IMG/VR virus record: IMGVR_UViG_3300030021_000030
Span: 1-18,562 of that record
Source: a virus
Lineage: Duplodnaviria; Heunggongvirae; Uroviricota; Caudoviricetes
Strand: one strand, 5' to 3'
DNA: 18,562 nt
The notes beneath the pieces are model-generated. The model ran no database searches and was not told the origin of the DNA. It worked only from the letters and a program-made list of their open reading frames with translations. This document shows positions 706-18,562 of the stretch, in pieces (position 1 is the first letter of the stretch; each line of letters begins with the position of its first letter). A program made the position numbers and the translations under genes.

Positions 706-715
706 TCGTCTGACA

Positions 716-747
716 AGCCCTCGCGTTGAGGGCTTTACTGATTTTTT
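716..747 (+). terminator. Putative rho-independent terminator downstream of grxA
   Basis: Inverted repeat agccctc (716-722) / gagggct (728-734) with 5-nt loop, followed by a T-rich stretch (tttttt at 742-747). Overlaps the convergent ybjM stop. Confidence 0.45.
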
Positions 748-1112: not shown

Positions 1113-1381
1113 TCGTTCCTCCTGACACTGCGTCTATCGAACACATTTTTCGCCAGTGTGGCGTTCAGTAAGATAAAGCCGCTTCGCATTCCATGCTAAT
1201 ATAGGCCAACGCAATTCATATAGCCGTTGATACCTAATGTGATTACACTAGTAAAATATATTGTTACTTTACTATCGTTTAGGTGCGCTGAATGAATCTG
1301 CGCCCTGAATTCTGGTAAAAAACATTATCGTAAATTACCATTTCTTTCAACAGCTTACTAGTAAACAAGAAGTTAGCCTCC

Positions 1382-3067: not shown

Positions 3068-3179
3068 AACTGAAGTTGCCCTGAAAATGAAATTTTTTTG
3101 CACAACCGCAGAACTTTTCCGCAGGGCATCAGTCTTAATTAGTGCCACTGCTTTTCTTTGATGTCCCCATTTTGTGGAG

Positions 3180-3225
3180 CCCATCAACCCCGCCATTTCG
3201 GTTCAAGGTTGATGGGTTTTTTGTT
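3180..3225 (+). terminator. Rho-independent terminator downstream of ybjL
   Basis: 10-bp perfect stem cccatcaacc (3180-3189) / ggttgatggg (3207-3216) followed by TTTTTT (3217-3222). Confidence 0.6.
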
Positions 3226-3302
3226 GCCTGAAATTTATGCCTTTTAAAATCATGATGTTAGAAGCACTGTTTTTTAACGATGGCGACAAATTGGCGGCAG
3301 CG

Positions 3303-3521
3303 TCAAAGAGAGAGCGCCACCTGTCCTGATTTCATTGGATGCGGCTGAACCGGATTTGACTCTTTTGGCGTTGCAATCGAACGAACAAAAGTTTCATGGG
3401 TAACAAAAGTATGGCTGCAGTTAATGTTCTGGCACTGGTTGTAACGCTCTTTGGTCAATGAAGATACCTGAAAACTGCTGCGAGTATGGGCGGCACTTCC
3501 ACACAGTGGGCAAATCATCAT
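3303..3521 (-). CDS. ogr: Ogr-family late-gene transcriptional activator (zinc finger), 72 aa
   Basis: MMICPLCGSAAHTRSS...KERYNQCQNINCSHTF: Cys-X2-Cys ... Cys-X4-Cys zinc-binding motif typical of P2 Ogr / P4 Delta. Start moved to the internal Met so the product is 72 aa, the length of P2 Ogr. Confidence 0.85.
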   Translation of the reverse strand: MMICPLCGSAAHTRSSFQVSSLTKERYNQCQNINCSHTFVTHETFVRSIATPKESNPVQPHPMKSGQVALSL

Positions 3522-3611
3522 TTTTCGAGTTCTCCCCATTTTTGCTAAATTCACAATAATGATACCGCATTATTCCATTTTGAAAACTTAAAAGTTCTCC
3601 ATTGCGAAGAA

Positions 3612-4712
3612 TCATTCCATTTCGAAATCATCAATCTTCACTTCAAGCTCCAGACTGGTCGTAAAACCGTTATCCGGGCTGACGGTATGTGTCAGAGTCG
3701 TAATGGTCCATTCCGCATCATCTATCGGCTGTTTAAAACCACTGACCTTCACAGGCATTTCCGTGTAGAGATCTGCCCGCCCTTCCGCCAGTTGTAGCGA
3801 GAATGACGCAACGCCGCGTTGCAGGCGTTCCCACTGCATTTTTGCCGCTCGTTCGGCGTTGCTCCGGTTGGCATAAGTGCGATTAAGTACCAGCACGTTT
3901 TCATCCGTCCCCACCAGGTAATCGCCCTGCTTCGCTTCCGGCTCTTTCTTCTGCTTCTTAGTCCTGTGCTTACGCTTCACCGTAGTGCTTTCTTTCTTCG
4001 CGGGTTCGCGGGTATGCAACCAGCTGGCAATTACCCCCGTGTAGGCTCCGCGATCTGCCAGGGTAAAGCGGTGACTGTCGCCGTCCTTGCGTGTGATAGT
4101 GATCACCGGCAGTGGTTTACCAGTGGCGCTTTTGCCCTGTCCCTGCCGGATGAATAACAGATTGCCATTTTTCACCGACGCGATGGCACCGTACTGGCGC
4201 GCCAGCCGCATCAGAAAACTGCCGTCACTCTCATTAGTCTGGTCTATATGCTCCACGGGCTTATCCGACAGGTCTTTACCCAGTGCCATCTTCAGCTTGT
4301 GACGCGCGGCTATTTCCTTCACCACTTCCCCGACAGTGGTCTTGTGCCACGATTTTTCACGGCGGGTATTCAGCGTTTCCCTAAAATCAGCACTTCGCGC
4401 CCGGATAGTCAGGCGATCCGGTGCGCCAGTGTGTTCAATCTCGTCCACCGTGAATGCCCCTTTCGGGAAAAGCGGCTGCCCCTTCCAGCCCAGCGCCAGC
4501 GTAATGACCGCACCACGGCGCGGCAGCACGATTTTTCCGTCGGCGTCGTCCAGCTCCAGATCAAGCTGGTCCGCTTCAAAGCCCCGGTTATCCGTCAGCG
4601 TAAGCCCCATCAGGCGGTTGACCAGCACAGTGGTGATATCCTTGCCTTCAATACTGATGCTGAATGCTGGAGTTTTGTTGCCTTTGTTAAGCAGTTCAGA
4701 GCTGAAATTCAC
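3612..4712 (-). CDS. D: P2 gpD-like tail protein (late control gene D family)
   Basis: 366-aa ORF with the LTDNRGFEADQLDLELDDADG and WAV-type motifs characteristic of gpD; lies between U and ogr as in P2. Confidence 0.9.
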   Translation of the reverse strand: MNFSSELLNKGNKTPAFSISIEGKDITTVLVNRLMGLTLTDNRGFEADQLDLELDDADGKIVLPRRGAVITLALGWKGQPLFPKGAFTVDEIEHTGAPDRLTIRARSADFRETLNTRREKSWHKTTVGEVVKEIAARHKLKMALGKDLSDKPVEHIDQTNESDGSFLMRLARQYGAIASVKNGNLLFIRQGQGKSATGKPLPVITITRKDGDSHRFTLADRGAYTGVIASWLHTREPAKKESTTVKRKHRTKKQKKEPEAKQGDYLVGTDENVLVLNRTYANRSNAERAAKMQWERLQRGVASFSLQLAEGRADLYTEMPVKVSGFKQPIDDAEWTITTLTHTVSPDNGFTTSLELEVKIDDFEME

Positions 4713-5194
4713 GACAGCAGCCCTCCCACCGTTTTACTGATATCGCTTAAGGCAGACGTTGCCGTATCCTGCAAATTATTCAGCTGCGCACTGAGATCAC
4801 CGAACATATCGGACAGGGATTCATCCACCCGTTTGAGCGACAGGGTGAACTCAATCCGGCGCGGCATACCATCGCGGAAAAACTCCGTTTTAGTCTGATT
4901 CAGTCCCTCAATCACATACATGCCGTAAATCGTGCCGCTGCCTTCAATCAGGGGCCATGCTTTTCCCTGTTCTGCCATCTGCTCCAGAGCCAGCAACGAC
5001 AGCCTGCCGCCCGTTATCTCTGGCATAAGAACACCAGAAAGCGTCAGCATGTCGTTGTCCGGTCCCAGAAACTGCGTGGACGGACGTCGGTTGACCCGGC
5101 TGTTTGCCGCATGTCGCCAGCTGCGTTGATACTGCAGTTCCTGATACGGCACAGTGCGCAGCATAAACACGTACAATCCCAGCACCATCATCAT
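4709..5194 (-). CDS. U: P2 gpU-like tail protein
   Basis: 161-aa ORF in the P2 position between T and D; 4-nt ATGA overlaps with both neighbours. Confidence 0.85.
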   Translation of the reverse strand: MMMVLGLYVFMLRTVPYQELQYQRSWRHAANSRVNRRPSTQFLGPDNDMLTLSGVLMPEITGGRLSLLALEQMAEQGKAWPLIEGSGTIYGMYVIEGLNQTKTEFFRDGMPRRIEFTLSLKRVDESLSDMFGDLSAQLNNLQDTATSALSDISKTVGGLLS

Positions 5195-8100
5195 GCGTCG
5201 TATCCCCCCTGATCGCTGTAGTTACTCCTGGCTTTTGCCTTCAGCCTGCGTTCACGTTCATCAAGCTGACGTGCCACCTCCCGCGCAATATCCTGCGCAC
5301 TTTGTCCTGGCTGCGTCTGAATGATGATCTGCATCGGTGCCTCAATCCGCTGAACGGGCGGCACAGTGGCTGCACGACTCACCATCGCTTCGTCGCCTTT
5401 CGCGGGAAGTGCCAAAGGGTGCAACGGTGGAAACTCTGCTGGCGCGGCAGCAACGCCCATCATTCCGGCAACAACGGCAGCCAGTGCAGCTGTATTTCTC
5501 CGGCTGGTCACATTTGCCGGGCCGTTAACAATTTCCGGCCCGTTTTCACCGACGATGCCAAACTGCCCGCGCGGGATATACCCGCCGCTGTCATACATCC
5601 CCGCAAAGCCATATCCCCATGACGGAAAACCACCCGATGGCATCATCACTTTACCGTCTGCATTCACCGTCGCAGGTTGCTGACGCGTCACGCTTTCCGG
5701 CAGTTTCGCCTTTGCAGCTTCTTTACTGACAATGCCGAGTTTATCCAGCAACCAGGAAACACCGGATTTCAGGGAGTCCAGCGGATGCATGACCATATTC
5801 AGCCCTTCCGCCAGTGCCTCCCCGAATCGTCGCCCCATTGCCGCTGCGCTCTGCAGTTCGGCAGAGGTCGACTTAACAGGCGTCAGCAGATTAGTAAACC
5901 AGCCCCACAGCGCCTGTACTTTGTCGCCAATCCACTGAAACACAGGCTTAAGTGGTTCGAATGCAGCACTGATGGGACCTGCCGCCGCTTTGAATCCTTC
6001 CACCACGCCACCGAGAAATGCGGTGATGGGTTGCCAGTATTTCCAGACAACCAGCGCTACGCCTGCCAGTGCAGTAACCACAAGACCTATCGGACTGAGC
6101 AGAGCACCTAACAGACCAGATATGGCATACAGGGCAACGCGCAGCATCGCCAGCGGACCGGATGCCAGCACACGAAGCACCGTGCCTGCGGAGGCCAGTC
6201 CACCGCGCAGTACCGCCAGAGGATTCATAAACATCACAGCAACAGCACGTAAACCGGATAATCCAGACCGCAAAAGTGCAACCGGCGCACCTGCTACAGT
6301 TTTCAGGACATTTCCCGTCAGTGATGCCGTGCGGCGCAAAGACGACAACGGCGCAGTAAGTAAACCTGCGGCGTTGCCCGATGAAGCAAGCCCGCGTCGC
6401 AGCAGTGCCAGTGGTGCGCAAGCTAACCAGGACAACGCGCTGCTGGTTCGTGTTACTGCTGCCGTAACGGAAGGTAACGTTTTGATACCCAGCACAGCAG
6501 CCAACACCACAGCCAGGGTGCCGAGGCCCACAGTAACAGCAGCCACAACCGCGGCTACTTTCATCAGTGTGCCCGTCAGTTCAGGGTTAGCTTCCACCCA
6601 GCGACGCAACGCCCCCGTGATGCTTTTCACCGTGTACAGAATATCCATCAGCGGCTGGCGCAGCGTTTCGCCCAGGCTGCTGAAGGTGTTCTGCGCTCCG
6701 GTTTTGACCAGCAACCACTGCGCAGAAAGTGAGTCCTTGTTAATGTCGGATTCTTTCTGCATCGAACCGAGCGCATCATTGCCCGCTGTCAGTTTTAGCT
6801 GGCGCTGCAGTTCCGGCAGGTTGTTTGCCAGTTTCGCCGCATCATCGCCAAACTCTTTACCAAACAACATGGTCATGGCAGACAGGCGCTTATCCTGCGG
6901 CAGTGCGTTCACCTTCTCCAGTACGCGCTGGATAGTTCCCATCGCATCCTTCGTCATCTGCTTTTCAATCACTTCAGGATTGAGTTTCAGCAGATTCATT
7001 CCTTCAAAGAAACTCTTGCTTTGCATGGTCGCAATGGACAATTCACGCACCATCGCGTTGGCAGCACTGGCAGCGACCTCCGGCGCAGCCCCCAGTGTCA
7101 GGAAGGTGGAACCCAGCGCCGCCGCTTTACGATAATCCAGACGATCAGCCACACCGCCCAGGCGTTGCATGACATCAATGATGTCTGCCCCTTTCGACAT
7201 AGCGTTATCATCCAGATAGTTCAGCGCATCACCGAGCTGTTCAATATTGCGGGTTGGTATTTTGTAGAGCTGGGCGATTTTCCCCAGACTTTCTGACAGT
7301 TCATCCGCTGGCAGCTCAAAGGCTGTTGCCGCCTTTGCTGCCGTACTGGCGAAGGCCAGCAGGTCACGTTTCTGGTCCTCCCAGCTGTCGTCAGGGTTTG
7401 CCACATTCATGCGCGCACCACCTTCAACCAGTGCGGCGAAGTCCACAGCACCGTTTTCCATTGGCAGCTGTTCACTGGCAGCTTTGATGGCATCCTGCAT
7501 TTCGTAAAAACGCGCAGTGCGGTTGCCATTATCGTCACGCAGACCATTGACCTGCTTTGCCACACCTTTCATGGCATCTTCCATGCTGGTATAGCTTTTT
7601 ACCGCCGCCATCACTGGCGCGCCCATTGCCAGCCCTGCAGCCGTGGTGGTGGCTCCGGCTCCTGCGATGCGATCGCGCACTTCAAGCCGTCTTGAGTATT
7701 GTTCTCTGGCAGCCTTCATCCGTGCCTGTTGTTCACCCAGACGTTTAAGTGCTTTTTGCTGGCCCTCCAGTGCCTGACGAGTTTCTTCGGCATTTTTCTT
7801 AAGTTCTCGCTGGGCACTACTGAGTTGTCTGGTATCAATCCCTGATTCTTTAAGTGCCTGACGTTGTCTCTGGACCGCCCCCAACAAGCCGTTATAGGTC
7901 TGCTGAAGTTCCTGTACTCGTGTTTTGGCCTGACTGAATAACTTTGCCTGCGCGGCGGTTGGCCTGTTAGTGGCAGCAAATTGTGTGGCGAGTTTTGCCG
8001 CCTCTTCGCGGGCTGCGTTCAGGTTGTTGGCTGTTATGGCTAGTTGCGAGCGCGTCTTGCGAAATTCATCAATTCTGCCAGCCTGCTTATTCAGTTCTTT

Positions 8101-8229
8101 GAGGCTGTTTCGGGTATTCTGAATTGCGCCAGCCAGCTCTTTCGAACTGGCCTGTGCAGCACGGAATGGGCGGGTGAGTTTGTCAACCGCATTAAGAATG
8201 ACCTGCAGGCGCAGGTTATTATCACTCAT
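5191..8229 (-). CDS. T: Tail tape-measure protein (gpT-like), 1012 aa
   Basis: Very long ORF with an N-terminal coiled-coil/Ala-rich region and central hydrophobic Gly/Ala repeats, in the canonical position after E/E'. Its ATG overlaps the E' stop (ATGAGTGA). Confidence 0.9.
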   Translation of the reverse strand: MSDNNLRLQVILNAVDKLTRPFRAAQASSKELAGAIQNTRNSLKELNKQAGRIDEFRKTRSQLAITANNLNAAREEAAKLATQFAATNRPTAAQAKLFSQAKTRVQELQQTYNGLLGAVQRQRQALKESGIDTRQLSSAQRELKKNAEETRQALEGQQKALKRLGEQQARMKAAREQYSRRLEVRDRIAGAGATTTAAGLAMGAPVMAAVKSYTSMEDAMKGVAKQVNGLRDDNGNRTARFYEMQDAIKAASEQLPMENGAVDFAALVEGGARMNVANPDDSWEDQKRDLLAFASTAAKAATAFELPADELSESLGKIAQLYKIPTRNIEQLGDALNYLDDNAMSKGADIIDVMQRLGGVADRLDYRKAAALGSTFLTLGAAPEVAASAANAMVRELSIATMQSKSFFEGMNLLKLNPEVIEKQMTKDAMGTIQRVLEKVNALPQDKRLSAMTMLFGKEFGDDAAKLANNLPELQRQLKLTAGNDALGSMQKESDINKDSLSAQWLLVKTGAQNTFSSLGETLRQPLMDILYTVKSITGALRRWVEANPELTGTLMKVAAVVAAVTVGLGTLAVVLAAVLGIKTLPSVTAAVTRTSSALSWLACAPLALLRRGLASSGNAAGLLTAPLSSLRRTASLTGNVLKTVAGAPVALLRSGLSGLRAVAVMFMNPLAVLRGGLASAGTVLRVLASGPLAMLRVALYAISGLLGALLSPIGLVVTALAGVALVVWKYWQPITAFLGGVVEGFKAAAGPISAAFEPLKPVFQWIGDKVQALWGWFTNLLTPVKSTSAELQSAAAMGRRFGEALAEGLNMVMHPLDSLKSGVSWLLDKLGIVSKEAAKAKLPESVTRQQPATVNADGKVMMPSGGFPSWGYGFAGMYDSGGYIPRGQFGIVGENGPEIVNGPANVTSRRNTAALAAVVAGMMGVAAAPAEFPPLHPLALPAKGDEAMVSRAATVPPVQRIEAPMQIIIQTQPGQSAQDIAREVARQLDERERRLKAKARSNYSDQGGYDA

Positions 8230-8658
8230 CGTTGGCCCCGCTTCTCTGAATCGCTTTATACCGCCATTCCAGCACTTCGGTCAGCGGCATAACGTCAGTA
8301 ACGGATGGCGGCCAGTGAAAGATGGTGGCGATATCAGCCACCAGATCGTCAACCGTCAGGCTGTCGGTAAACCGGCAAGCACCGACTTCTTCAACAAAAA
8401 AGTGACAACCTCAACCGACATGGCAGTGAGATCTGCCGGGTCCATCTCTGCAATTTCCTGTGCAGTCAGTGCCGGACTGGAGATGCGGGGGATCACGGTC
8501 ATCATCGCGTTTACATCCATATCCATAATGGCCTGCAGGCGTGTACCGCGCAGCGCACCGGACTGCGGTTTACGCAGCACAATTTCGGTGATTTCTGTTT
8601 TACCGCGCTTGATGGGGGTATCCAGTTGAATGGTCTTTTCAGTCTGCTTATCGCTCAT
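8222..8658 (-). CDS. E: Tail assembly chaperone gpE and the frameshifted fusion product gpE+E' (E alone is 8356..8658; E' extension is in the -1 frame, 8222..8395)
   Basis: 100-aa gpE-like ORF; the T_TTT_TTG slippery heptamer sits at codons F87-L88. Manual translation of the -1 frame from the slip site gives a 59-codon open extension (VEEVGACRFTDSLTVDDLVADIATIFHWPPSVTDVMPLTEVLEWRYKAIQRSGANDE) ending at a TGA that overlaps the T start codon. Confidence 0.8.
8395..8401 (-). other. Programmed -1 ribosomal frameshift slippery site T_TTT_TTG (E/E')
   Basis: Minus-strand sequence ACT TTT TTG read directly from plus-strand caaaaaa (8395-8401); same heptamer as the P2 E/E' site. Confidence 0.75.
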
Positions 8659-8712
8659 TTTGCTGTCCTGTCAATTGGGTTCTGGCGCGGTATCCCGCGC
8701 CGTTCAGATATA

Positions 8713-9228
8713 TCAGAGGCCGAGGGCGTTGCGGTGCGCTTCCATCAGGTCCACACCGTCCACAATTTCCACCATGTTGATAAGGTCCACTTCATAGAGC
8801 ACCTCACCATTGATGGTCAGCTTCGCGTAGCTGTTGGTACTGGTCACTTTGGTGGTGTTGCTTTCGCCCGTCTTCCACTCGCCGGAATCCACTTCTTTGT
8901 GACGTCCACGCACGACAAGCTCCACGGCCTGCACTTCCCCGGTATCGTCACGCTGAATAGAGCCGGTAAAGCGCAGCTGGATGCCATCCACCGTGGCTTT
9001 ACCCATCTGTTTAAACAGCAGCAATTCAGTACCACCAATGGAAAATTCTGTGTCCAGCGCACTGTCATCAAGCCCCAGATCCACATCAACTGCACCAGGC
9101 ATTCCGCCGCCGCGATACTTCTCATATTTGCGGGTGAATTTCGGCAGCGTCAGCGACTCAACGATCCCCTGCCAGTTGTTCCCGTCGTTAAACAGGTTCA
9201 GGTGTTTTAATTTGCGTGGTAAAGCCAT
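8713..9228 (-). CDS. FII: Major tail tube protein (gpFII-like)
   Basis: 171-aa ORF beginning MALPRKLKHLNLF..., recognisable as the P2 FII tail tube family; follows FI. Confidence 0.9.
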   Translation of the reverse strand: MALPRKLKHLNLFNDGNNWQGIVESLTLPKFTRKYEKYRGGGMPGAVDVDLGLDDSALDTEFSIGGTELLLFKQMGKATVDGIQLRFTGSIQRDDTGEVQAVELVVRGRHKEVDSGEWKTGESNTTKVTSTNSYAKLTINGEVLYEVDLINMVEIVDGVDLMEAHRNALGL

Positions 9229-9237
9229 GTTGTCCCC

Positions 9238-10410
9238 TTACGCGCTGACCTGGCTGGCGAAATTCACCAGGTACTGATCGGTGATGCGCTGACGCAGCAT
9301 CAGGTTTTCAAGTGGCGGCACTGGCGTGTAGTCGTAGTCGATGGTGAGTTTTCCGGCTTTCAGCGTGTCTTTGTCGTTCACCGACTCATCCAGCCAGCAA
9401 TCACCACCAATGAGATAGCCCTGACTGACCAGGCTGCGCATTTTGGCGCGGATACCTTCGATAATGTCGCGGGCCAGCGACGGGTTAAGCGGTTTATCCA
9501 CCGCCCACATGTGTGCTTCTGCCATCGTGTCCATCAGCACCTGCGCCGTGCGGGTGTAGTTTTCGAAGGCAAAGAGCGGGTCATCACTCAGACAGCGGGA
9601 ACCCCAGAAGCGGAAACCGTCTTTACGCACAAGCGTAGTGACGTCGTTCTGGTTCAGCAGACCTGCATCGGTTGCCGGGTCCTGCAGATCCCAGAACACA
9701 TCTGCAGAAATTCCGGTGACACCGTTCACGCCCACGTTGGACAGGCTTTTGTGCCATCCGGTCTGCTCGTCAATTTTGGCGCGCAGACCAAGCGCACGGG
9801 CGGTGGCATATGCCGTTGCTTCGGCATTCAGCACCGTGTCCCAGCCAGTAAAGTCAGGCCAGATCAGCATCCCTTCGCGCTGGCTGAAGTTTTCGCGGTA
9901 AGTGATCGCCTCCTGCACTGTCTTGCAGCCATACGCTGACAGGTAAGCAAATCCACGCAGGCTTTGCGCCACGCTCAGCAACTCAGTAGCTACCGCCTTG
10001 GTGTCGTGGCCTGGCACGCCGAGAATGCGCGGTTTAACGCCGAGCTGTGACTGGGCAGATAACAGGGCTTTCATACCTGTTTTTTTACCTTCAGCAGTCA
10101 CTGCGCCGATGATATTGGTCGTGGTTTCGTCTTCCGTTTCACCCTGCGGCACACGCACAACAATGGTCACGGGTTTTGCCTGGTCAGCGATGGCATCCAG
10201 CGAACGGGCCAGAGTACCTGACTCACCCGCTTTACCGCTGGCAGTCAGCACATCAGTGATCAGCACGGGTTTATTAAGAGGAAACATTTTTGCATCGGCA
10301 TCATCGCCCGTGCAGACCATACCCACGATGGCGGTGCTCACCGTGGTAATAGATCGGGTGCCTTCGTTGACTTCAACAACGCGCACCCCGTGGTGGTAAT
10401 CCTGAGCCAT
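9238..10410 (-). CDS. FI: Contractile tail sheath protein (gpFI-like)
   Basis: 390-aa ORF ([19 protein letters not shown]...[11 protein letters not shown]...[20 protein letters not shown]) closely resembling P2 FI along its whole length. Confidence 0.9.
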
Positions 10411-10486
10411 AGTGGCGAACCTCCTGATTGGATTAGGCTTCGCCCTATGTTGAAGTGATTGTGCCTGACAAACAGCTAAGCGCAGT

Positions 10487-10504
10487 TGTGTCGTTATTCA
10501 CACA
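10487..10504 (-). promoter_or_regulatory. Candidate Ogr-dependent late promoter activator site (TGT-N12-ACA) upstream of FI
   Basis: TGTgtcgttattcacACA dyad in the 142-bp gap between the invertase stop and the FI start. P2/P4 late promoters carry TGT-N12-ACA centred near -55. Confidence 0.4.
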
Positions 10505-10552
10505 AAATGACGGTATTTGTCTACTTGCAGGGATAATCAAAATAATGCTGAT

Positions 10553-11119
10553 TCAGGGGGATTCATTGCTCTTATTTGCCGGAAATTTTCTATAAATGGT
10601 AGAAACGCCTACATCAAAAATCAGTGCAATACGCTGTCTTGATTCTCCGGCCTCGAGTAAACGCCCAATCTGTGCCCACTGTTCGGTGGTCAACTTAGGA
10701 CGGCGTCCACCTACTCTGCCTTTGGCACGAGCTGCAGCCAGCCCTGCCATGGTACGTTCAACTATCAGTTCGCGTTCCATTTCAGCCATGGCACCCATGA
10801 CATGAAAAAAGAAACGGCCCATTGGGGTGCTGGTATCAATACTGTCAGTCAGACTTCGGAAATTCACGCCACGCTGACGCAACTCTTCTATCAGCGTAAC
10901 AAGATGCCGCATACTGCGCCCCAACCTGTCCAGCTTCCAGACAACCAGAGTGTCTCCTGCCGATAGTGTCCTGAGCAGTTTTTTAAGCCCCGGTCTGTCG
11001 GACTTAGTGCCACTGATTTTATCCTCAAAAATCCGCTCACATCCCGCGCAGTTCAGTGCATTACGTTGCAAATCGGTGTTCTGGTCATTTGTTGACACGC
11101 GTACATAGCCAATAAGCAT
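10553..11119 (-). CDS. Serine recombinase, DNA invertase of the Gin/Hin/Pin/Cin family
   Basis: Translation from the internal Met: MLIGYVRVSTNDQNTDLQ...VVWKLDRLGRSM...FFFHVMGAMAEMERELIVERT...C-terminal HTH. The catalytic Ser is in the YVRVSTNDQ motif. GGGA Shine-Dalgarno lies upstream of the ATG at 11119. Confidence 0.85.
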   Translation of the reverse strand: MLIGYVRVSTNDQNTDLQRNALNCAGCERIFEDKISGTKSDRPGLKKLLRTLSAGDTLVVWKLDRLGRSMRHLVTLIEELRQRGVNFRSLTDSIDTSTPMGRFFFHVMGAMAEMERELIVERTMAGLAAARAKGRVGGRRPKLTTEQWAQIGRLLEAGESRQRIALIFDVGVSTIYRKFPANKSNESP

Positions 11120-11174
11120 GATCAATCCCCTGAATAAAAACCGTGGATGATGCCAGTTAGCCATTATCTCTGCA

Positions 11175-11200
11175 TTTTCATAAACGTTGGTTTGGGAGAA
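11175..11200. repeat. gix/hix-like 26-bp invertase crossover site (invertase-proximal)
   Basis: TTTTCATAAACGTTGGTTTGGGAGAA fits the Hin/Gin site consensus TTnTCnnAAACCnnGGTTTnnGAnAA and is 20/26 identical to the reverse complement of the site at 12275-12300. Confidence 0.6.
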
Positions 11201-11545
11201 GCGGCGAAAAGGGGTGTGGGCACAGGAGATAATCAGATACCGGATATGGGAGCATTCGCTTCTGGTTCGGGATGGTTCAGGCTACCAGGTGGATATATTG
11301 TTCAGTTTGGCACTTTTGCAGGAAACACGACCCGCTTTATCAGTGGACACTTCCCTATACCATTCCCTAATCAGCCGATGGTTTCAGTCAGTGTTATGTC
11401 TGATGCCGTTCAGTCAGACCCGTCGATTCCTGCCCCGCAGGTTTTGTCTGTAAATTTTGAACATATCAGTAATTCAGCGTGGCGTGTGGCAACCAGTGAT
11501 ATCTCACAGCAATACAGATTCAGTTATATTTCGATAGGACGGTAG
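11201..11545 (+). CDS. Promoterless alternative tail-fibre C-terminal segment (Sv'-like), expressed only after inversion
   Basis: Open frame runs through the gix-like site and encodes ...GWFRLPGGYIVQFGT..., parallel to the current H C-terminus ...GYFELPGGLLLQWGH... There is no plausible independent start; the ORF-track Met at 11147 lies inside the invertase gene region. Confidence 0.6.
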   Translation, partial: AAKRGVGTGDNQIPDMGAFASGSGWFRLPGGYIVQFGTFAGNTTRFISGHFPIPFPNQPMVSVSVMSDAVQSDPSIPAPQVLSVNFEHISNSAWRVATSDISQQYRFSYISIGR

Positions 11546-11547
11546 AA

Positions 11548-11973
11548 ATGCAGAAATATATTTTCAGTGCCGATAAAAATGCGTTTTTCCCTGTGGAGCT
11601 TAAAATCGCTTATCAGGAATCCGGCGAATGGCCCGATGATGGAATCGAAATTGACGACACTGTTGCCGCCGAATTTATGAAGGAAGCACCAGAAGGAAAA
11701 TACAGAGGTGTCATCGACGGAATGCCAGCATGGATTGATATTCCACCACCAACTCATGAGGAACAAATTGCTGCAGCCGAATTGGAAAAGCAGCAATTGA
11801 TTAATCAGGTCAACGAATACATAAACAGTAAGCAGTGGCCTGGCAAATCGGTGCTTGGACGCCTGAAAGATGATGAATTAACGCAGTACAATTTATGGCT
11901 GGATTATCTTGATGCGCTGGAAGCGGTGGACGTATCCAGCGCTCCAGATATTGTTTGGCCCTCCTCAACCTAA
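11548..11973 (+). CDS. Tail fibre assembly chaperone (Tfa/gpG/Mu U family)
   Basis: 141-aa ORF immediately after the Sv' segment (3-nt gap) with the conserved C-terminal Tfa-like region ...QYNLWLDYLDALEAV...; opposite strand to H. Confidence 0.75.
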   Translation: MQKYIFSADKNAFFPVELKIAYQESGEWPDDGIEIDDTVAAEFMKEAPEGKYRGVIDGMPAWIDIPPPTHEEQIAAAELEKQQLINQVNEYINSKQWPGKSVLGRLKDDELTQYNLWLDYLDALEAVDVSSAPDIVWPSST

Positions 11974-12001
11974 ATAAAAAGCCGCTCTACGCGGCTTTCT
12001 C

Positions 12002-13336
12002 TTACATCCCGAGTGCAAAATACGTATAGCTGTCAATATTGTTTACCGTGCCGTTTCCATTCCATCCATAAAGGCTAAAGCTAGTTAAGGTATAATTAGA
12101 TGACGTCACATACCGACCATCAGTTGTGATTTTATGCGGCAGTACAATGAACGGAGTGACGTTAAACGACTTCTTAAACTGTATAATGGCACTTGACGCA
12201 TGAATCGAGCCGTGCCCCCATTGCAGCAGCAATCCTCCCGGTAATTCAAAGTACCCATCAGCCTCCAGTAACCGCTCTCCAAAACCAAGGTATGTGAGAA
12301 GACCAGTTACATCCTTTCCACTCAAATTAGTCAGCGTATTGTCCAGCGGTTGTTTACCTGCCAGTGCATTAAGCATTGTCGTGGCAAAGTTCGGGTCATT
12401 CCCCAGCGCCGCCGCCAGTTCGTTCAGTGTATCCAGTGCCGCAGGTGCAGAACCCACCATTGCCGCAATCGCCGATTTCACAAATGCCGTGGTGGCAATT
12501 TGTGTATTGTTGACCGACTGTGCCGCAGTAGGTGCGGTTGGCGTTCCGGTGAGTGCCGGACTCGACAGCGGCGCTTTCAGTGCCAGCGCATTGTTAATGG
12601 TGGTACTGAATTTCGGATCATTGTTAATGGCTGCGGCTATTTCTTTCAGCGTGTCCAGCGTGGCTGGCGCACCATTAATAAGAGCCGTCAGAGCCGCCTG
12701 AACAAACTCGGTGGTCGCAATCTGCGTGGTGTTATTCCCTGCTGCTGGCGTTGGCGCTTTGGGTGTCCCGGTAAACGTCGGACTTTCTTTGGGTGCATAC
12801 TGTGAATGCGGGTCCGGTGCGGCAAGATGTTTTGCCATCAGGTCATCCACGTACACCTTCAACTCCAGTGCTTTGTCATCCACATACTTGCGGGTTGCCA
12901 GCACTACAGCAGGGTCGATTTTCAGGGTGATATTGTCCGTGCTGCTGGTTATCAGCACCATGCGCACGGTCTGGGTGCGCCCGCTGCCTTCAGCCAGTTG
13001 CGGCTTATAGCTTTCCGGGCAGTTGCCCACGGCAATCAATGCCCCGGACTCATCAAACAGGCCCACTTCACGTATCCACCAACCACCCTCGTTTTCAGGG
13101 ATCACCTGTTCAGCAATAATCTGGCTGCTGTTCTGCGGGTCGATATAAAGCATATTCAGCGCAGCCCGGCGTTTCTCATTTACCAGTGCCGTCTGCTTTG
13201 CGTCCGGCGTTGGCAATACTCCGCCGCCATCGCCCACCGCCATATGAGTAATTTTTAGCGGCACACCGAGCGCGGCGGCGCTGGCAAGTTTCGCCGCGCC
13301 AATATCCGTTAGCAGGGTATAAAATTTTGTGCTCAT
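12002..13336 (-). CDS. H: Tail fibre protein (gpH-like): constant N-terminal part plus the currently fused variable C-terminal tip
   Basis: 444-aa ORF with the conserved P2/Mu/P1 tail-fibre N-terminus (MSTKFYTLLTDIGAAKLASAAALG...) and repeated TQIATTEFV / TQIATTAFV collar motifs. The last ~90 codons lie inside the invertible segment. Confidence 0.9.
   Translation of the reverse strand: MSTKFYTLLTDIGAAKLASAAALGVPLKITHMAVGDGGGVLPTPDAKQTALVNEKRRAALNMLYIDPQNSSQIIAEQVIPENEGGWWIREVGLFDESGALIAVGNCPESYKPQLAEGSGRTQTVRMVLITSSTDNITLKIDPAVVLATRKYVDDKALELKVYVDDLMAKHLAAPDPHSQYAPKESPTFTGTPKAPTPAAGNNTTQIATTEFVQAALTALINGAPATLDTLKEIAAAINNDPKFSTTINNALALKAPLSSPALTGTPTAPTAAQSVNNTQIATTAFVKSAIAAMVGSAPAALDTLNELAAALGNDPNFATTMLNALAGKQPLDNTLTNLSGKDVTGLLTYLGFGERLLEADGYFELPGGLLLQWGHGSIHASSAIIQFKKSFNVTPFIVLPHKITTDGRYVTSSNYTLTSFSLYGWNGNGTVNNIDSYTYFALGM
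12275..12300. repeat. gix/hix-like 26-bp invertase crossover site inside H
   Basis: CTCTCCAAAACCAAGGTATGTGAGAA; its reverse complement TTCTCACATACCTTGGTTTTGGAGAG encodes LTYLGFGE of H and matches the site at 11175-11200 in inverted orientation. Confidence 0.6.
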
Positions 13337-13938
13337 GGATTCACTCTCATTGTGTCAATAACATGGACCGCCCCGCCTTCATGCGCGGTGCCGCCGGAAA
13401 TAATTGTTTCGTTGATATACGGATAGATCGTGATTTCTTCGCCAAGATAGCTGGCGGCTCCCACCCAATGCGGGCCGCTGGTCTGCAGGTTGATGGACAT
13501 GCCGATCATGTGACGGCTACATGGTTTGGCATCGCTTATCAGTCGCTCAAGTTCCAGATAGGTATCTTCAGTGATGCCCTGGTCCTGCACGCCGATATCC
13601 AGACGAAACGTGCCCGGTGTTTCTCCGGTATGCCACCACTCAATAATGCGGATCAGAAAGCCGAACGGTTCCACTACCCGCCGCACTGCACTGGTGGTTC
13701 CTTTATGCTGATGAATATAAAAAGCATCCTTCACCACCTGACGTTTGACGCTTTCAGTCCAGCCCTCATCCCAGCGATCCACAGAGAACGCCCAGGCGAG
13801 ATAAGGCAGGAAGCTGACCGGACAGGTCGCCGGATTCCACAAGTCACGAAGCGGCACCTGCAGATCAGAAATCCCGCTGCAGGTTTGCGCCAGTCGGCGC
13901 TCCAGTGGTGTTGAACCCGGTGGCAGCAGACTATTCAT
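13333..13938 (-). CDS. I: Baseplate protein gpI-like
   Basis: 201-aa ORF in the P2 position between J and H with 4- to 8-nt coupled overlaps. Confidence 0.8.
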   Translation of the reverse strand: MNSLLPPGSTPLERRLAQTCSGISDLQVPLRDLWNPATCPVSFLPYLAWAFSVDRWDEGWTESVKRQVVKDAFYIHQHKGTTSAVRRVVEPFGFLIRIIEWWHTGETPGTFRLDIGVQDQGITEDTYLELERLISDAKPCSRHMIGMSINLQTSGPHWVGAASYLGEEITIYPYINETIISGGTAHEGGAVHVIDTMRVNP

Positions 13939-14839
13939 CCGTTCCTCCGTTGGTTACGCTCCACTGCGTACATGATGCCGCCTGTGTTTTGTTCAGGACC
14001 ACATCCGCCAGAGGAGAAGCCAGCTCCACACGCTGCACACCCTCAACATGCAGGGCGGCAAAGATGGCGCTACGGCGAATATCCCGACCAAGACGCGTCT
14101 GACTGGCGATGTACTTCTGCAGGCTGGCTTTTGCCGCTGCCATTACCGGCTCTGCTTCCGGTCCCGGATAGAGAAAAATGGTGGCTTCCACGCGATACGG
14201 GATGATTTCTGCGCTGCGAACCGTAAGACGGTCAGCCACCGGGCGTACGTTCTCACTGTTCAGAGCTTTTTCCACCACGTCCAGCAGGTCCTTTTCTGCA
14301 GTTCCATCGCCTTCGCGGCTCAGAACAGTCAGCACCACCTCTGCAGGTGCCGGGCTGGTTGCACTGGCATCCGCCACCCGACCGTCGGCGCTTCGGGCAT
14401 GAAATTCATAAGCTGCAGTTGGCCCCGCAACTGAAAGTCCTTCAAAGGCTGCAGGCACACGCAGGCGTAACGCTTCATCACTTTCCATCACAGCCGCAAC
14501 AGGCGGTACAGCGTCATCATCAGCAGGTGTCACCGTCAGGCGTTTCACGTTGTAGTTGGCAGCGAGCTGGTCAAGATCGCTGCCCATCGCGTAAGCCACC
14601 ATCACAGCCTGCGCGGCTTCGTTAATGCGCTGGCGCAGAAGCAACTCACGGTAAGCGTTCTCCTGCAGCAATTTGGTGACGGGTTCAGATTCAAGCTCCA
14701 GCGTACGCATCACTGCTTCCTGCTCATCTTTCGGATGAAGCGCCACAAATTCGGCCTTGCGTTCGGAAAGCAGCGTCTCAAAGTCCGGCACATCCACAAT
14801 CTGCGGCGCAGGTAACTGCGAAAGGTCAATCACTGCCAT
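13931..14839 (-). CDS. J: Baseplate protein gpJ-like (302 aa from the Met at 14839)
   Basis: MAVIDLSQLPAPQIVDV... matches the P2 gpJ N-terminus. The ORF-track start at 14878 is rejected in favour of the conserved Met. Confidence 0.85.
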   Translation of the reverse strand: MAVIDLSQLPAPQIVDVPDFETLLSERKAEFVALHPKDEQEAVMRTLELESEPVTKLLQENAYRELLLRQRINEAAQAVMVAYAMGSDLDQLAANYNVKRLTVTPADDDAVPPVAAVMESDEALRLRVPAAFEGLSVAGPTAAYEFHARSADGRVADASATSPAPAEVVLTVLSREGDGTAEKDLLDVVEKALNSENVRPVADRLTVRSAEIIPYRVEATIFLYPGPEAEPVMAAAKASLQKYIASQTRLGRDIRRSAIFAALHVEGVQRVELASPLADVVLNKTQAASCTQWSVTNGGTDE

Positions 14840-15185
14840 TCTCTGCTCCTGTTGATACGGAAAGGGAAACAGGCACACCGTTATTACGCCGCCCGGTCAG
14901 CTCCACCACCATTGAACCGTCAAAATTGCTGTTGATGGTGATGGAATCCAGCGTCAGCCGTGGCTCCCAGCGACTCAGCGCCACATACACTGCCGACATG
15001 ACCTGCAGGCGTAATGCCGGATTTTGTGGCTGGTCTATCAGTGTCGACAACAGGGAACCATATTCCCGACGGGCAATGCGGCTACCCTGCGGTGTCAGTA
15101 GAATGTCCCGCACCGACTGACGCAGATGGTCAATATCAGTAATGGCTTTACCGCTGGTATTGTTCATCCCGCTATAAAGCGTCAT
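14826..15185 (-). CDS. W: Baseplate wedge protein gpW-like (GPW/gp25 family)
   Basis: 119-aa ORF between V and J, of the size and position of P2 gpW. Confidence 0.85.
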   Translation of the reverse strand: MTLYSGMNNTSGKAITDIDHLRQSVRDILLTPQGSRIARREYGSLLSTLIDQPQNPALRLQVMSAVYVALSRWEPRLTLDSITINSNFDGSMVVELTGRRNNGVPVSLSVSTGAENGSD

Positions 15186-15760
15186 ACCGGACCTCCAGTC
15201 GTGTCGCCGCCTTTCAGGACGCCAGTATGCTGATGCGCATCAACCACGATCCCGTTAGAACTCATCGCTCCGCCACCCTGGGTAACGCCACCATTGATCA
15301 CCACTTCGCTGTTAATGCGCGTGCGGTCAGCCTCCAGTACAAACTCACTGGTTTTCATGGTGATGTTATCAGCGGCCTCAATGACCATTGATTTGATGCC
15401 CCTGACATACCAGCTCCCGGTGGCGGGTTCGTATTCAAACCAGCCACCGTCAGGATGTTCTGTCACGCAGGCGTCCGCCGACGTCGACGGTGGTGCGAAC
15501 TGATTCGAATAGACAGCGGGCAGCGCAAAGGCAGTCTCCAGATTGCCTCCCAGACTCAGCAGCACCACCTGCTCACCTTCCGATGGTTTCCACCATGTGC
15601 GGGCATTACCCGCGCGCAGCGTCAGCCAGCTGATCCAGTTGGTTTCAAGGTCGCCCGTTTTCACCCGGCAAAGCCAATTCTCCCGGTCCACTTCGGTAAC
15701 TACACCTGTGCGGATCAGATTGGTGATAAGGCGCATGATTTCGGTTAATTGTGCGTTCAT
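15182..15760 (-). CDS. V: Baseplate spike/assembly protein gpV-like (193 aa from the Met at 15760)
   Basis: MNAQLTEIMRLITNLIRTGVVTEVD...RTWWKPSEGEQ... closely parallels the P2 gpV N-terminus; the longer ORF-track start at 15826 is unlikely. Confidence 0.85.
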   Translation of the reverse strand: MNAQLTEIMRLITNLIRTGVVTEVDRENWLCRVKTGDLETNWISWLTLRAGNARTWWKPSEGEQVVLLSLGGNLETAFALPAVYSNQFAPPSTSADACVTEHPDGGWFEYEPATGSWYVRGIKSMVIEAADNITMKTSEFVLEADRTRINSEVVINGGVTQGGGAMSSNGIVVDAHQHTGVLKGGDTTGGPV

Positions 15761-15806
15761 ACCGTATATATTAAACATTTGAAATAATATCTTCCAAACG
15801 GCATAA

Positions 15807-15837
15807 TTGTACTGAGGATGACACAAATGATTATAAA
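15807..15837 (+). promoter_or_regulatory. Candidate sigma70 promoter for the ATPase/TOPRIM cassette, in the divergent V/cassette intergenic region
   Basis: TTGTAC (15807-15812), then TG-n-TTATAAA extended -10-like element (15828-15837); AAGGA Shine-Dalgarno at 15861-15865, 7 nt before the ATG at 15873. Confidence 0.3.
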
Positions 15838-15872
15838 TTTAAGTAGCTCAACTAATAATAAAGGATACATAG

Positions 15873-17129
15873 ATGTATAAAATTCAAAGCGTCACAATTA
15901 ATGGCTTTTGGCAGCGATTAAACTGTTCCTGCTCATTTAATGATGATGTAAATATTATTATAGGCCGAAATGGCACGGGTAAAACAACCTTTATGAACCT
16001 TCTGCACTCAATATTATCCCTTGATTTGGACAGTATTAACAATGCTGATTTCAATAGTGCCGAAATAAAACTTAAAGATAAAAAAAAGACAAAAACAATC
16101 AAAGTCAAAAAACTTGAAAGCGATACATCTCCATTTTCCAAAATAGAATATCAGCTTTCATCTAAAAAACACACAATTCGTTTATTTAACACTGATGATA
16201 GAAGAATATCTCTTAGTTATAGACGTAGAGTGCATGATGAAACAGAAGAACTAAGAACAGAACTAGCAAAACTAGTCTCGCTTTCTTCTTTATCTGTTTA
16301 CAGATTAAGAAATAGTGATGATTTTGAAGTTAAAGATAAATATGGCTCTCGTTTTATCAACCCTGTTGACTATAAGTTATCAGAATTAATACAGGAACTT
16401 ACAAAATATCAACTTGAACTATCCCAGAAAGCCAGAGATATCGCATTAGAACTGCAAAAAGAGGTTCTGGCATCAATACTTTATAGCAAGGAAGATATGG
16501 AGAATCCTGCTTACAACATTAACTTTAACAAAGAGGAAGAAAAACAAAACCTCCTTAATGCATACACACAGTTAAATGCTATTGATCAAAACATTCGTAA
16601 AAAAATCAGCTTTCATGTTGAAACAATTAATAATACCATTTCGGAATTAAAGAATAAAAGTGAAAGTGGCTTTGATATTCGTTCGATCGAAGCATTGAGA
16701 AAAACACAAAAAATAATCAAAATGTCATTAACTTCAAAAGAGAAAACATCAAAAATATTTTCTCCAATAGAACAATTCTTAAGCATACTAAGAAATTTTA
16801 TCACCGATAAAGAATTTCATTTTCAATCGGGATTGTTAGTCATAAATAACACCTATGGGCCAATAGTTTTAGAAAGTTTATCTTCTGGTGAAAAACAACT
16901 GCTAATTTTATTCATTGAGACCCTCTTACAAAGAGGGCAACAATATATTTTCCTAACTGATGAGCCTGAGCTTTCCTTACATATTCAATGGCAAAGAAAT
17001 ATTATCCCTGCCATAAAAAAATTAAATCCTAATGCACAAATTATTGCTGCAACCCATTCTCCTGAAGTTGCATCTAAATATAAAAACGCCATTTTCAATA
17101 TGGAGAGATTAGTCAATGCTAATCAATGA
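15873..17129 (+). CDS. ABC/SMC-like ATPase (AAA_15/AAA_21-type), 418 aa; candidate AriA-like component of a PARIS-type defence system
   Basis: Walker A GRNGTGKTT (aa 31-39), ABC signature LSSGEKQ (aa 336-342), Walker B YIFLTDEPE (aa 358-366), H-loop AATHS (aa 392-396). A Lys/Glu-rich, probably coiled-coil insertion separates Walker A from the signature. The region is strongly AT-rich relative to the flanking phage. Confidence 0.8.
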   Translation: MYKIQSVTINGFWQRLNCSCSFNDDVNIIIGRNGTGKTTFMNLLHSILSLDLDSINNADFNSAEIKLKDKKKTKTIKVKKLESDTSPFSKIEYQLSSKKHTIRLFNTDDRRISLSYRRRVHDETEELRTELAKLVSLSSLSVYRLRNSDDFEVKDKYGSRFINPVDYKLSELIQELTKYQLELSQKARDIALELQKEVLASILYSKEDMENPAYNINFNKEEEKQNLLNAYTQLNAIDQNIRKKISFHVETINNTISELKNKSESGFDIRSIEALRKTQKIIKMSLTSKEKTSKIFSPIEQFLSILRNFITDKEFHFQSGLLVINNTYGPIVLESLSSGEKQLLILFIETLLQRGQQYIFLTDEPELSLHIQWQRNIIPAIKKLNPNAQIIAATHSPEVASKYKNAIFNMERLVNANQ

Positions 17130-17973
17130 TTCTAATGCAGAAAACTTTTCTTGGTCTAATGAAGCGGAAAATGTGATCAGTTTATTTTATGATGCTGATA
17201 TTATGGTCTATGTTGAAGGTGAAGATGACATTGCTTTTTGGGAAATAATTTTTAAAAAAAATGGTCGTTTTAATGTAGAAGTTCAAGATGTTGGTGGATG
17301 TGAAGCTTTACAACCATATATCGAAAAAATAACCTCAGGAGAAATAAACGCCATAGTTGCCAGAGATTCGGATCTAAACCATTTTTCTGACAACATAGTA
17401 AAGCATACAAATATTATTTACACAAAGGGATATTCAATAGAAAACACAATCATTGATGAAAAAATCATATCACACATACTCAAAAACACAGGCCGTTTTT
17501 GCACGAAAAAAATGCAGGAAATAGATGTGGAAAATTGGCTTTCTAATTTCTATAGCAACATTGAGAACTTAATAATACTAGATATTCACAATCATTTAAA
17601 TAAATTAGGATGCTCCGTAATTGGTGATTCCTGTGATCGTTTTATGCAATCAAGAAATTCATACAATATATGCAAGGAAAAAATAGATGAATATATCAAT
17701 AGACTACCTGAATCGTTTACTACTAATGGTTTAGCAGAAAAAAACAACATTCAATTCCCAGAAAATACATCTATAAATCATTGGGTGAAAGGGCACTTTC
17801 TTTTCTCAGCATCATTAAGATTTATAACAAACTTTTTGGCATCCATCAATAAAAAAACCTCTATATCCAAGGATAGTTTTTACGCAAACATCTTGTCTGC
17901 ATTTGAGATTTTTTATACAGAAGAACATGCTGATTATAGTTATTACAATCAAAAGATAGGGGCCATCACATAA
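17116..17973 (+). CDS. TOPRIM/DUF4435-like putative nuclease, 285 aa; candidate AriB-like effector
   Basis: N-terminal VYVEGEDD (conserved Glu, aa 34) and ARDSD (DxD, aa 84-86) resemble TOPRIM metal-binding motifs of OLD/DUF4435 proteins. The start overlaps the ATPase stop by 14 nt, with a GAGAGA Shine-Dalgarno inside the upstream gene. Confidence 0.7.
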   Translation: MLINDSNAENFSWSNEAENVISLFYDADIMVYVEGEDDIAFWEIIFKKNGRFNVEVQDVGGCEALQPYIEKITSGEINAIVARDSDLNHFSDNIVKHTNIIYTKGYSIENTIIDEKIISHILKNTGRFCTKKMQEIDVENWLSNFYSNIENLIILDIHNHLNKLGCSVIGDSCDRFMQSRNSYNICKEKIDEYINRLPESFTTNGLAEKNNIQFPENTSINHWVKGHFLFSASLRFITNFLASINKKTSISKDSFYANILSAFEIFYTEEHADYSYYNQKIGAIT

Positions 17974-17982
17974 AAAAATAAA

Positions 17983-18002
17983 GGCTGGCTTTTATGCCAG
18001 CC
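17983..18002 (-). terminator. Hairpin terminator at the 3' end of S, preventing late-operon read-through into the cassette
   Basis: ggctggc (17983-17989) / gccagcc (17996-18002) stem with 6-nt loop. On the minus strand it is followed by TTTATTTTTT; on the plus strand it directly follows the cassette stop codon. Confidence 0.5.
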
Positions 18003-18450
18003 AATCCCCAGAAAATAAATTCATAATGAATATTTTTCGAATTAATTTTTCACATCCATTTAATCCAAGCAATTTTCTCTCTGCGTAACGGATCTCAGGT
18101 CCTTTGCGGCTGACGCGATCACGTAGGCCGTAATGGTGAACGCGGGCAATGCGCTGTACCTTACCTTCAAACTGTACGCTGGCAGTATCCGCGCTGGCGG
18201 CAGTTTTCAGGTATTTTGTAGTGCGCAGCTTTGTAAACATCTGACGTTTGATCCGCCCCTTTTTACTGCGTGCTGTTACCCGTCGCGGTTCATAGCTGCT
18301 GCCGTCAGGGTTGCGCTGCATCCTGATATTATGCTGCTGTGTCCGGCGCAGTTCCTGCGACAGCTGGCGCATCATGCGGCTTCTTGCGGCTGGTTCTAGA
18401 TTCGCCAGCAAGGCACTCAGCCAGTCGTCCACCTTCTGCAGTTCAGCCAC
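17992..18450 (-). CDS. S: Tail completion / virion morphogenesis protein gpS-like, GTG start
   Basis: 152-aa ORF resembling the phage virion morphogenesis (P2 gpS) family, located upstream of V as in P2; start codon GTG. Confidence 0.75.
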   Translation of the reverse strand: MAELQKVDDWLSALLANLEPAARSRMMRQLSQELRRTQQHNIRMQRNPDGSSYEPRRVTARSKKGRIKRQMFTKLRTTKYLKTAASADTASVQFEGKVQRIARVHHYGLRDRVSRKGPEIRYAERKLLGLNGCEKLIRKIFIMNLFSGDWLA

Positions 18451-18562
18451 GTTTCACCGTCCACATTTCTTCAGGTTCATCGGGTTCTGCTACAGCTTCA
18501 ACGCTCGACACACTGCCGTCAGTGCTGACCAGCACACGTTCCGTCAGTTGCAGGTTAAGGCT
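18443..18562 (-). CDS. R: Tail completion protein gpR-like, 3' fragment (gene continues beyond the window)
   Basis: Open frame to the window edge ending ...EPDEPEEMWTVKRG, with its TGA overlapping the S start. Assignment rests on position in the P2 gene order only. Confidence 0.5.
   Translation of the reverse strand, partial: SLNLQLTERVLVSTDGSVSSVEAVAEPDEPEEMWTVKRG

Follow-up and report, generated by a model that had tools for sequence, protein, structure and literature searches.

A probable PARIS abortive-infection module carried by a P2/186-like prophage in its orf30 slot

The window analysed here, an 18,562-nucleotide (nt) stretch of viral DNA (IMG/VR record IMGVR_UViG_3300030021_000030, positions 1 to 18,562), raises the question of what two AT-rich genes are doing among the tail genes of a P2/186-like prophage, on the strand opposite to their neighbours. 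The first gene, ariA (15873..17129, plus strand, ATG start), encodes an ABC/SMC-type ATPase of 418 amino acids (aa), and the second, ariB (17116..17973, plus strand, ATG start), a DUF4435/TOPRIM nuclease of 285 aa; they were assigned as the sensor/scaffold and the effector subunit of PARIS, respectively. An initial annotation, made from the letters alone, had taken the pair for a PARIS-like anti-phage cassette, and this interpretation was supported. The cassette is very probably a PARIS abortive-infection module, acquired horizontally as a moron, in the orf30 slot of the prophage. It is a further member of an already described family and not a new kind of system.

At approximately 31% guanine plus cytosine (GC), about 7.8% of random codons are stops, and a composition calculation gave a chance of an open frame of approximately 1e-15 over 418 codons and 1e-10 over 285 codons. 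These low probabilities, together with profile E-values of 1e-22 to 1e-39, show that neither frame arose by chance. The GC content was 0.30-0.31 over positions 16001-18000 (0.309 for the cassette itself) compared to 0.55-0.59 in the flanks. The neighbouring tail genes J, W and V (13931-15760) and S (17992-18450) are all on the minus strand. RefSeq names the two flanking products 'phage baseplate assembly protein V' and 'phage virion morphogenesis protein', in agreement with the placement in the gap between S and V that had been proposed at the outset; the coordinates of the two plus-strand genes, their 14-nt overlap and their orientation opposite to the tail genes were likewise found to be exact against the list of open reading frames (ORFs).

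In the overlap (17116..17129, plus strand) the ATG of ariB lies within the 3' end of ariA. An overlap is kept in relatives, with 11 nt in L003, 14 nt in L007 and 8 nt in L095, and the arrangement suggests that the two genes are translationally coupled. A Shine-Dalgarno sequence AAGGA (15861..15865, plus strand) was found 7 nt 5' of the ariA ATG, where the block AATAAAGGAT is kept even in an allele of 44% identity, and a second one, GGAGAG (17102..17107, plus strand), 8 nt 5' of the ariB ATG. The RefSeq entries for the pair (WP_001580543 and WP_001580542) are labelled only 'AAA family ATPase' and 'DUF4435 domain-containing protein', and neither accession occurs in the tables of Rousset et al. 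No tRNA was found in the cassette and no Rfam family matched it. A search around it for repeats resembling insertion sequences, attachment sites or integrons returned only short AT-rich chance matches.

With a MacSyFinder rule, Rousset et al. (2022) defined PARIS as adjacent genes of which one scores at least 32 bits with AAA_15 or at least 27 bits with AAA_21 and the other at least 27 bits with DUF4435. In the Pfam check that the initial annotation had proposed, AriA scored 79.0 bits with AAA_15 and 71.3 bits with AAA_21, both over the gathering cut-offs and as expected of the ABC ATPase that had been predicted, and AriB scored 95.5 bits with DUF4435 compared to a cut-off of 27. The pair, which is adjacent and overlaps by 14 nt, therefore falls within the rule. 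AriB also matched an OLD-like TOPRIM profile below threshold. Both proteins were named as AriA and AriB by PADLOC, with E-values of 7.6e-39 (PDLC04164) and 4.1e-22 (PDLC02983), respectively. The custom AriB model PDLC04165 gave only 3.2e-6, a weak match that fits a divergent clade.

The catalytic motifs were found as first quoted and with the same numbering. In AriA, the Walker A motif (G31-RNGTGK37TT), the signature (L336SSGEKQ), the Walker B motif (FLTD363E364PE) and the H-loop (ATH395S) are complete, and no variation was seen at K37, residues 336-342, D363/E364 and H395 among 32 sequences. K37 and E364 align with K39 and E393 of AriA from B185 PARIS, in which the Walker A lysine and the Walker B glutamate are needed for defence. 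In AriB, the motifs are VE34GEDD38 and D84-S-D86, and all of 33 sequences share E34, D38, D84, D86 and E109. By hhalign these residues are in register with B185 AriB, whose two-metal TOPRIM site is formed by E26, D30, D88, E90 and E122 and whose E26A and E90A substitutions abolish defence.

The predicted folds pointed in the same direction, and the solved AriA and AriB structures were the best matches in the PDB for both proteins. The AlphaFold2 model of AriA (mean predicted local distance difference test score 79) has a beta-rich N lobe (residues 3-103), helices (114-309) and a C lobe (314-415), which is the split ATPase head with a short coiled-coil bundle expected of AriA. When this model was compared with the PDB by Foldseek, the top 14 matches were AriA chains, with E-values of 2.5e-19 to 5e-16 and template modelling (TM) scores of 0.57-0.67 over approximately 440 columns. 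The best AriA-chain match (E 2.5e-19, TM 0.64) covered the full length, and retron PtuA and Rad50 were approximately six orders of magnitude worse. The whole chain of AriB was predicted to consist of a TOPRIM domain followed by a C-terminal helical domain, as in solved AriB, and the C-terminal domain matched AriB only.

Related families were compared and rejected. In P2 Old, the class 1 and class 2 OLD nucleases and GajA, the ATPase and the TOPRIM domain are fused in one polypeptide, and the partner in Gabija is a UvrD-like helicase, GajB; in contrast, the ATPase and the TOPRIM protein of the cassette are encoded by separate genes with no adjacent helicase. On AriA, the GajA model of PADLOC scored 47 bits compared to 132 bits for the AriA model. 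PtuA, of Septu and of retron-associated systems, shares the AAA_15/21 ATPase fold with AriA (81 bits in PADLOC, Foldseek E-values of 1e-12-1e-13), but its partner would be the HNH nuclease PtuB, and the DUF4435/TOPRIM partner found here had no HNH match; the NCBIfam PtuA model scored 67 bits on AriA, far from its cut-off of 500. AbiL, which pairs the ATPase AbiLi with the RloB/OLD-like TOPRIM protein AbiLii, was set aside on the ground that the second ORF matched only the AriB and AriAB models of PADLOC; a review reports that AbiLii and AriB have no significant sequence similarity and superpose poorly.

A mechanism can be proposed by homology with B185 PARIS (PMC9122126, PMC11464382, PMC10802264, PMC12409363). 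In the reference system, up to three AriB monomers are sequestered per AriA hexamer, and freed AriB dimerises. AriA of the cassette would likewise form a hexameric scaffold through ATPase head-head and coiled-coil contacts and would keep AriB monomers inactive at the head-head interface. An infecting phage would supply a protein that binds AriA in an ATP-dependent manner, upon which AriA would rearrange. AriB would then be freed and dimerise, and its two-metal TOPRIM site (E34, D38, D84, D86 and E109) would cut host RNA, most likely specific tRNAs. Translation would halt, the infection would be aborted, and the lysogen, hence the prophage, would be shielded from competing phages.

Several observations weigh against the assignment, or against carrying the B185 mechanism over in full. 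The clade is, by its sequences, remote from both tested PARIS systems, B185 and O42, whose validated sequences were taken from Table S2A of Rousset et al.; the question of a canonical or a divergent member is thereby answered on both sides, the cassette being PARIS by all testable criteria, yet a distant relative of what has been assayed. The middle of AriA (approximately residues 60-290) aligned poorly with B185, and the coiled-coil/pore part aligned with low confidence. AriB had no match in the PDB by phmmer or with the clade profile, and hhalign gave E-values of only 0.016 to B185 and 4.5e-4 to O42. R28 and R31 of B185 AriB, which make salt bridges to AriA, have E36 and I39 as their hhalign counterparts; A64 and a gap stand opposite the lysine 'tweezers' K60 and K64, which grip the anticodon loop of the tRNA; and N124 stands opposite F137, a residue of dimerisation, the last two comparisons lying in low-confidence parts of the alignment. 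The candidate ariAB promoter is a consensus match in a scan that was not enriched for sigma-70 sites (11 compared to 10.4 expected from shuffled sequences). Moreover, in S56, one of the three complete genomes that carry this allele, ariA and ariB are each annotated as two fragments (1547-3593 of L098).

Since R28, R31 and F137 are not kept, the contacts must differ from those of B185 if an AriA-AriB complex forms. The coiled-coil/pore part of AriA and the residues with which B185 AriB grips AriA and tRNA are not conserved, so that the B185 trigger and RNA targets do not carry over by homology. These differences bear on a reading in which the cassette belongs to the PARIS family with another effector chemistry: AriB would spare the anticodon stems of tRNA-Lys(UUU), tRNA-Thr and tRNA-Asn and would cut other RNAs, or DNA in the manner of OLD and GajA, and the trigger of AriA would not be a DNA-mimicking anti-restriction protein of the Ocr kind. 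The loss of the tRNA-recognition residues K60, K64 and R28 and the unalignable coiled-coil/pore region speak for it, but the equivalent of B185 R236 stays basic (K225 here, and arginine in most homologues). Burman et al. divided PARIS into 11 clades, found the pore residues poorly conserved among them and proposed differing triggers; Belukhina et al. stated that it is unknown whether targets are conserved across PARIS systems; and the defence profile of O42 PARIS differs from that of B185. In addition, AriB evolves faster than AriA, with identities of 71% and 86%, 65% and 80%, and 64% and 77%, respectively, between the window and L003, L007 and L012. A different trigger, target or both are plausible on these grounds, though less likely than not, and this reading nests inside the explanation of the cassette as a PARIS module.

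The faster divergence of AriB is the reverse of the simple expectation that the sensor, which binds the trigger, should evolve fast. The most variable stretches in the clade were residues 121-150 and 181-210 of AriB and 241-270 of AriA.

The candidate sigma-70 promoter of ariAB, TTGAAA-17-CATAAT (15779..15807, plus strand), was the best in the scan (10/12). The L003 allele (AriA 86%, AriB 71% identical) has both hexamers unchanged and only 9/17 identical positions in the spacer; in the third allele (44%), the hexamers are not kept. CATAAT was absent from the promoter regions of gene V (pV) in other cargo modules. A slot-resident promoter serving any cargo was ruled out, as the whole pV region varies by module and homology begins only at the V ATG. 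Immediately beyond the hexamers lies a module-borne TGT-N12-ACA dyad (15808..15825, minus strand), the predicted Ogr/activator-binding site of pV. Its centre is approximately 56 nt upstream of the V ATG, and the activator site in the P2 RefSeq record, in which transcription of the V operon begins with the first base of the V coding sequence, is at the same relative position. An equivalent dyad was present in every examined slot, filled or empty. The candidate ariAB promoter overlaps the pV core on the opposite strand and, if TTGAAA and CATAAT are real, the predicted ariA transcription start (approximately 15814) falls within the Ogr dyad. From this geometry, it may be speculated that Ogr could damp ariAB in the late or lytic phase of the prophage itself, if the promoter is real.

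Selection on the two genes was assessed against the second E. coli allele. The proportion of synonymous differences (pS) was 0.72-0.77, which is saturated, and that of nonsynonymous differences (pN) was 0.08 for AriA and 0.16 for AriB. The low pN at saturated pS indicates that both genes are under strong purifying selection. Such values, in intact frames whose catalytic residues are all invariant, together with 301 representative AriB relatives at E<=1e-30 and three diverged alleles maintained at one slot, make it very improbable that the cassette is an inert or decaying passenger, that is, foreign DNA silenced for example by H-NS and contributing nothing. What can be said for a passenger is its AT-rich composition (GC 0.31), a promoter known only as a consensus match, the inactivity of O42 PARIS under its native promoter and the split annotation of the S56 copy. 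The S56 cassette aligned in two pieces and was approximately 54 nt shorter; the split could be either a real inactivation or an assembly error in an older genome.

The S-V slot holds one of three diverged alleles of the clade in 30 of 5,426 complete E. coli genomes. The window allele was found in three of these genomes. The second allele, that of L003, was found in nine, at the S-V position of other P2-like phages, and the third, with AriB 44% identical, also at the S-V position, in 18 genomes as well as in a deposited phage, vB_EcoM-813R9, where the pair is annotated as 'putative enzyme with ATPase activity' and 'hypothetical protein'. No match to the cassette was found by megablast against 50,697 phage records, and tblastn returned one distant allele only. 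Beyond E. coli, the clade (AriA approximately 418 aa, AriB approximately 280 aa) extends over Enterobacterales, Vibrio, Aeromonas, cyanobacteria and others; among representatives of clusters at 50% identity, 301 AriB relatives were found at E<=1e-30 and 1,614 at E<=1e-3. In P2-like prophages of Serratia, clade relatives occupy the canonical gpA-portal hotspot, and in Salmonella one lies on a conjugative/mobilisable MobA/TraD/PilS element beside an Mrr-type nuclease. The presence of relatives in several hotspots indicates that the clade is a mobile defence cassette that moves between them.

The other two E. coli carriers of the window allele differ in the state of the prophage. Strain 2014C-3075 has a complete prophage, ogr to int, in which the cassette is 99.5% identical and a separate cargo sits in the portal-gpA hotspot. 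In EC596 (L001), the cassette is intact and 100% identical in a heavily deleted prophage, which indicates that defence cargo was retained while the prophage decayed. The EC596 prophage has lost the equivalent of positions 3729-11231 of the window (from D to the invertase crossover) and a block from lysB to the replication gene, and its integrase carries an internal stop. Survival of the cassette after the loss of approximately 7.5 kb of tail genes and of head and lysis genes would also suit an addiction module of toxin-antitoxin type that stabilises the prophage or its remnant, with anti-phage defence secondary. Deep et al. indeed described PARIS as a toxin-antitoxin system of type II, with AriB as the toxic protein and AriA as both antitoxin and chaperone. 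In B185, however, deletion of either gene was non-toxic and abolished defence, on which ground the authors excluded a classical toxin-antitoxin system; the cassette moves among recognised defence hotspots; and Moura de Sousa et al. found defence genes to be generally kept in defective P2 elements. Addiction as the main role is thus unlikely.

The site of the cassette is the classic orf30 slot of P2 and not the gpA-gpQ hotspot of the original PARIS description. The initial annotation had linked it to P2/P4 accessory hotspots; PARIS is indeed known from a P2 hotspot, but that hotspot is gpA-gpQ, near cos, and the S-V gap is the orf30 locus. The orf30 region has long been listed among three foreign-gene loci of P2-like phages, and the defence-hotspot studies have been directed elsewhere, to gpA-gpQ next to cos and to Z/fun and tail-CI. 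A 2026 survey lumps sites 'within the tail genes / downstream of GpL', which make up 16% of P2 systems. Because of this lumping, PARIS at S-V has very probably been counted already in that survey, though not resolved to S-V.

On the left of the slot, the conserved backbone starts exactly at the ATG of the baseplate spike gene V (15182..15760, minus strand, as annotated in RefSeq), and homology between modules resumes there, at ATGAACGCAC. On the right, a terminator scan placed the intrinsic terminator of the O operon (head, lysis and R-S genes) at 17973..18002 on the minus strand, where GGCTGGC-ATAAAA-GCCAGCC followed by a T-run overlaps the last codons of S; a rho-independent terminator is annotated at the same place in the P2 RefSeq record, and the GGCTGGC/GCCAGCC arms are kept in L003. 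The 3' tail of S, approximately its last 33 codons (17992..18090, minus strand), is AT-rich and travels with the cargo module. The GC content of S is 0.30-0.33 in its last 100 nt compared to 0.57 in the remainder, its C-terminal approximately 20 aa past ...YAER(K/R)LLG vary with each cargo type, and nucleotide homology to Cartapus and L003 resumes only at approximately 18098-18101. In every filled slot among L002, L003, L014-L093, L095 and the window, the exchange unit consists of its own S tail, the opposite-strand cargo and its own TGT-N12-ACA dyad with a 46-47-nt pV core. Empty slots consist of the S stop, 4 nt, the dyad, 46 nt and V, with no terminator.

Other occupants of the slot were surveyed in 80 IMG/VR contigs (L014-L093) whose V is at least 97% identical to that of the window. 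The slot was empty in 61 contigs. In approximately 17 it was filled with single-gene cargos of AT-rich composition (GC 0.31-0.35), of which there were at least 10 unrelated kinds and none was PARIS. The cargo of L093 (584 aa) matched the PADLOC model ApeA at 1.4e-13; HEPN-like Rx4H ends were recognised by eye in four cargos (RDKIAH in L018, RHSLFH in L052, RNIIIH in L082 and RNNIVH in L093), and two cargos are DUF6216 membrane proteins. Cartapus gp14 had no Pfam or PADLOC match. L014 (689-1551), L015 (3638-4500), L016 and L028 share an 863-nt AT-rich filler in which no ORF exceeds 52 aa; its L015 copy had no Rfam match. This filler could be the remains of a cargo, or could encode a small protein or an RNA.

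The S-V gap looks like an under-mined defence slot. Recognised defence systems do occupy it, at a variable locus that the defence-hotspot surveys leave unresolved, and its modules are built in such a way that neither the S protein nor the promoter of the V operon loses its function in a swap. A wider proposal is put forward tentatively, at somewhat less than an even chance: the clade would be a functionally distinct PARIS type, with a non-Ocr-like trigger acting through the remodelled coiled coil and a faster-evolving AriB directed at another set of tRNAs or RNAs, and the orf30 slot would be a self-contained defence-exchange locus that swaps the S tail and the Ogr-dependent pV along with cargos, several others of which resemble abortive-infection genes of the HEPN type.

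The remainder of the window runs from chromosomal ybjC-ybjL and the gene of the small RNA RybB into the prophage, with the gene order ogr, D, U, T, E, FII, FI, invertase, tail fibre genes, I, J, W, V, cassette and S. The rybB gene (3147-3225, plus strand; 105 bits in Rfam) lies between ybjL and the ogr end of the prophage (ogr at approximately 3303-3521), indicating that the attachment site is at or beside rybB. In 2014C-3075, the other prophage end, with int, adjoins rcdA. After a Gin-like DNA invertase ORF (10553-11164, minus strand) come alternative tail-fibre C-terminal and assembly genes (11147-11545 and 11548-11973, plus strand). At the Cartapus crossover region, an inverted match of 66 nt (11184-11249) points to a host-range segment that can be inverted. 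At the invertase locus, 2014C-3075 has a broken recombinase and an acyltransferase instead.

The mechanism of PARIS is known from one system, B185, whose authors ask whether triggers and tRNA targets are conserved over the 11 clades. The cassette offers a compact natural example from E. coli in which the catalytic core is kept, other residues stand in place of those that B185 uses at the interface and for gripping tRNA, and the effector diverges faster than the sensor; it is therefore a good comparison system for asking what sets the specificity of trigger and target. B185 PARIS ('PARIS-2') has an AriA of 464 aa and an AriB of approximately 306 aa (PDB 8UX9 and 8V45-8V49). The AriA of the cassette is 46 residues shorter, and identity in structural alignments was approximately 20% for AriA and 13% for AriB. 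Direct sequence matches to B185 AriA (8UX9/8V46) were confined to both halves of the ATPase head; with the clade profile, hhalign gave a probability of 99.5% and an E-value of 3.2e-22. B185 PARIS is located in the cos-proximal hotspot of a P4 satellite, whereas the cassette is in the S-V slot of a P2-like phage.

O42 PARIS ('PARIS-1') has the same pair of AAA_15/AAA_21 and DUF4435 proteins and is also P4-borne; its AriA is longer, with HHpred coordinates to approximately 469. The TOPRIM N-terminal half of O42 AriB aligned with that of the cassette at the motifs FEGDDD, VDQD and IEN (hhalign E 4.5e-4), with an identity of only 25-28% over approximately 100 residues. At the level of the slot, the layout in the P2 RefSeq record is identical to that of the window: S, the rho-independent terminator of the O operon, the nonessential Orf30 on the opposite strand, the pV activator site and V. 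P2 Orf30 is a single protein of 261 aa with no Pfam or PADLOC match, whereas the same slot in the window carries a recognisable two-gene defence system.

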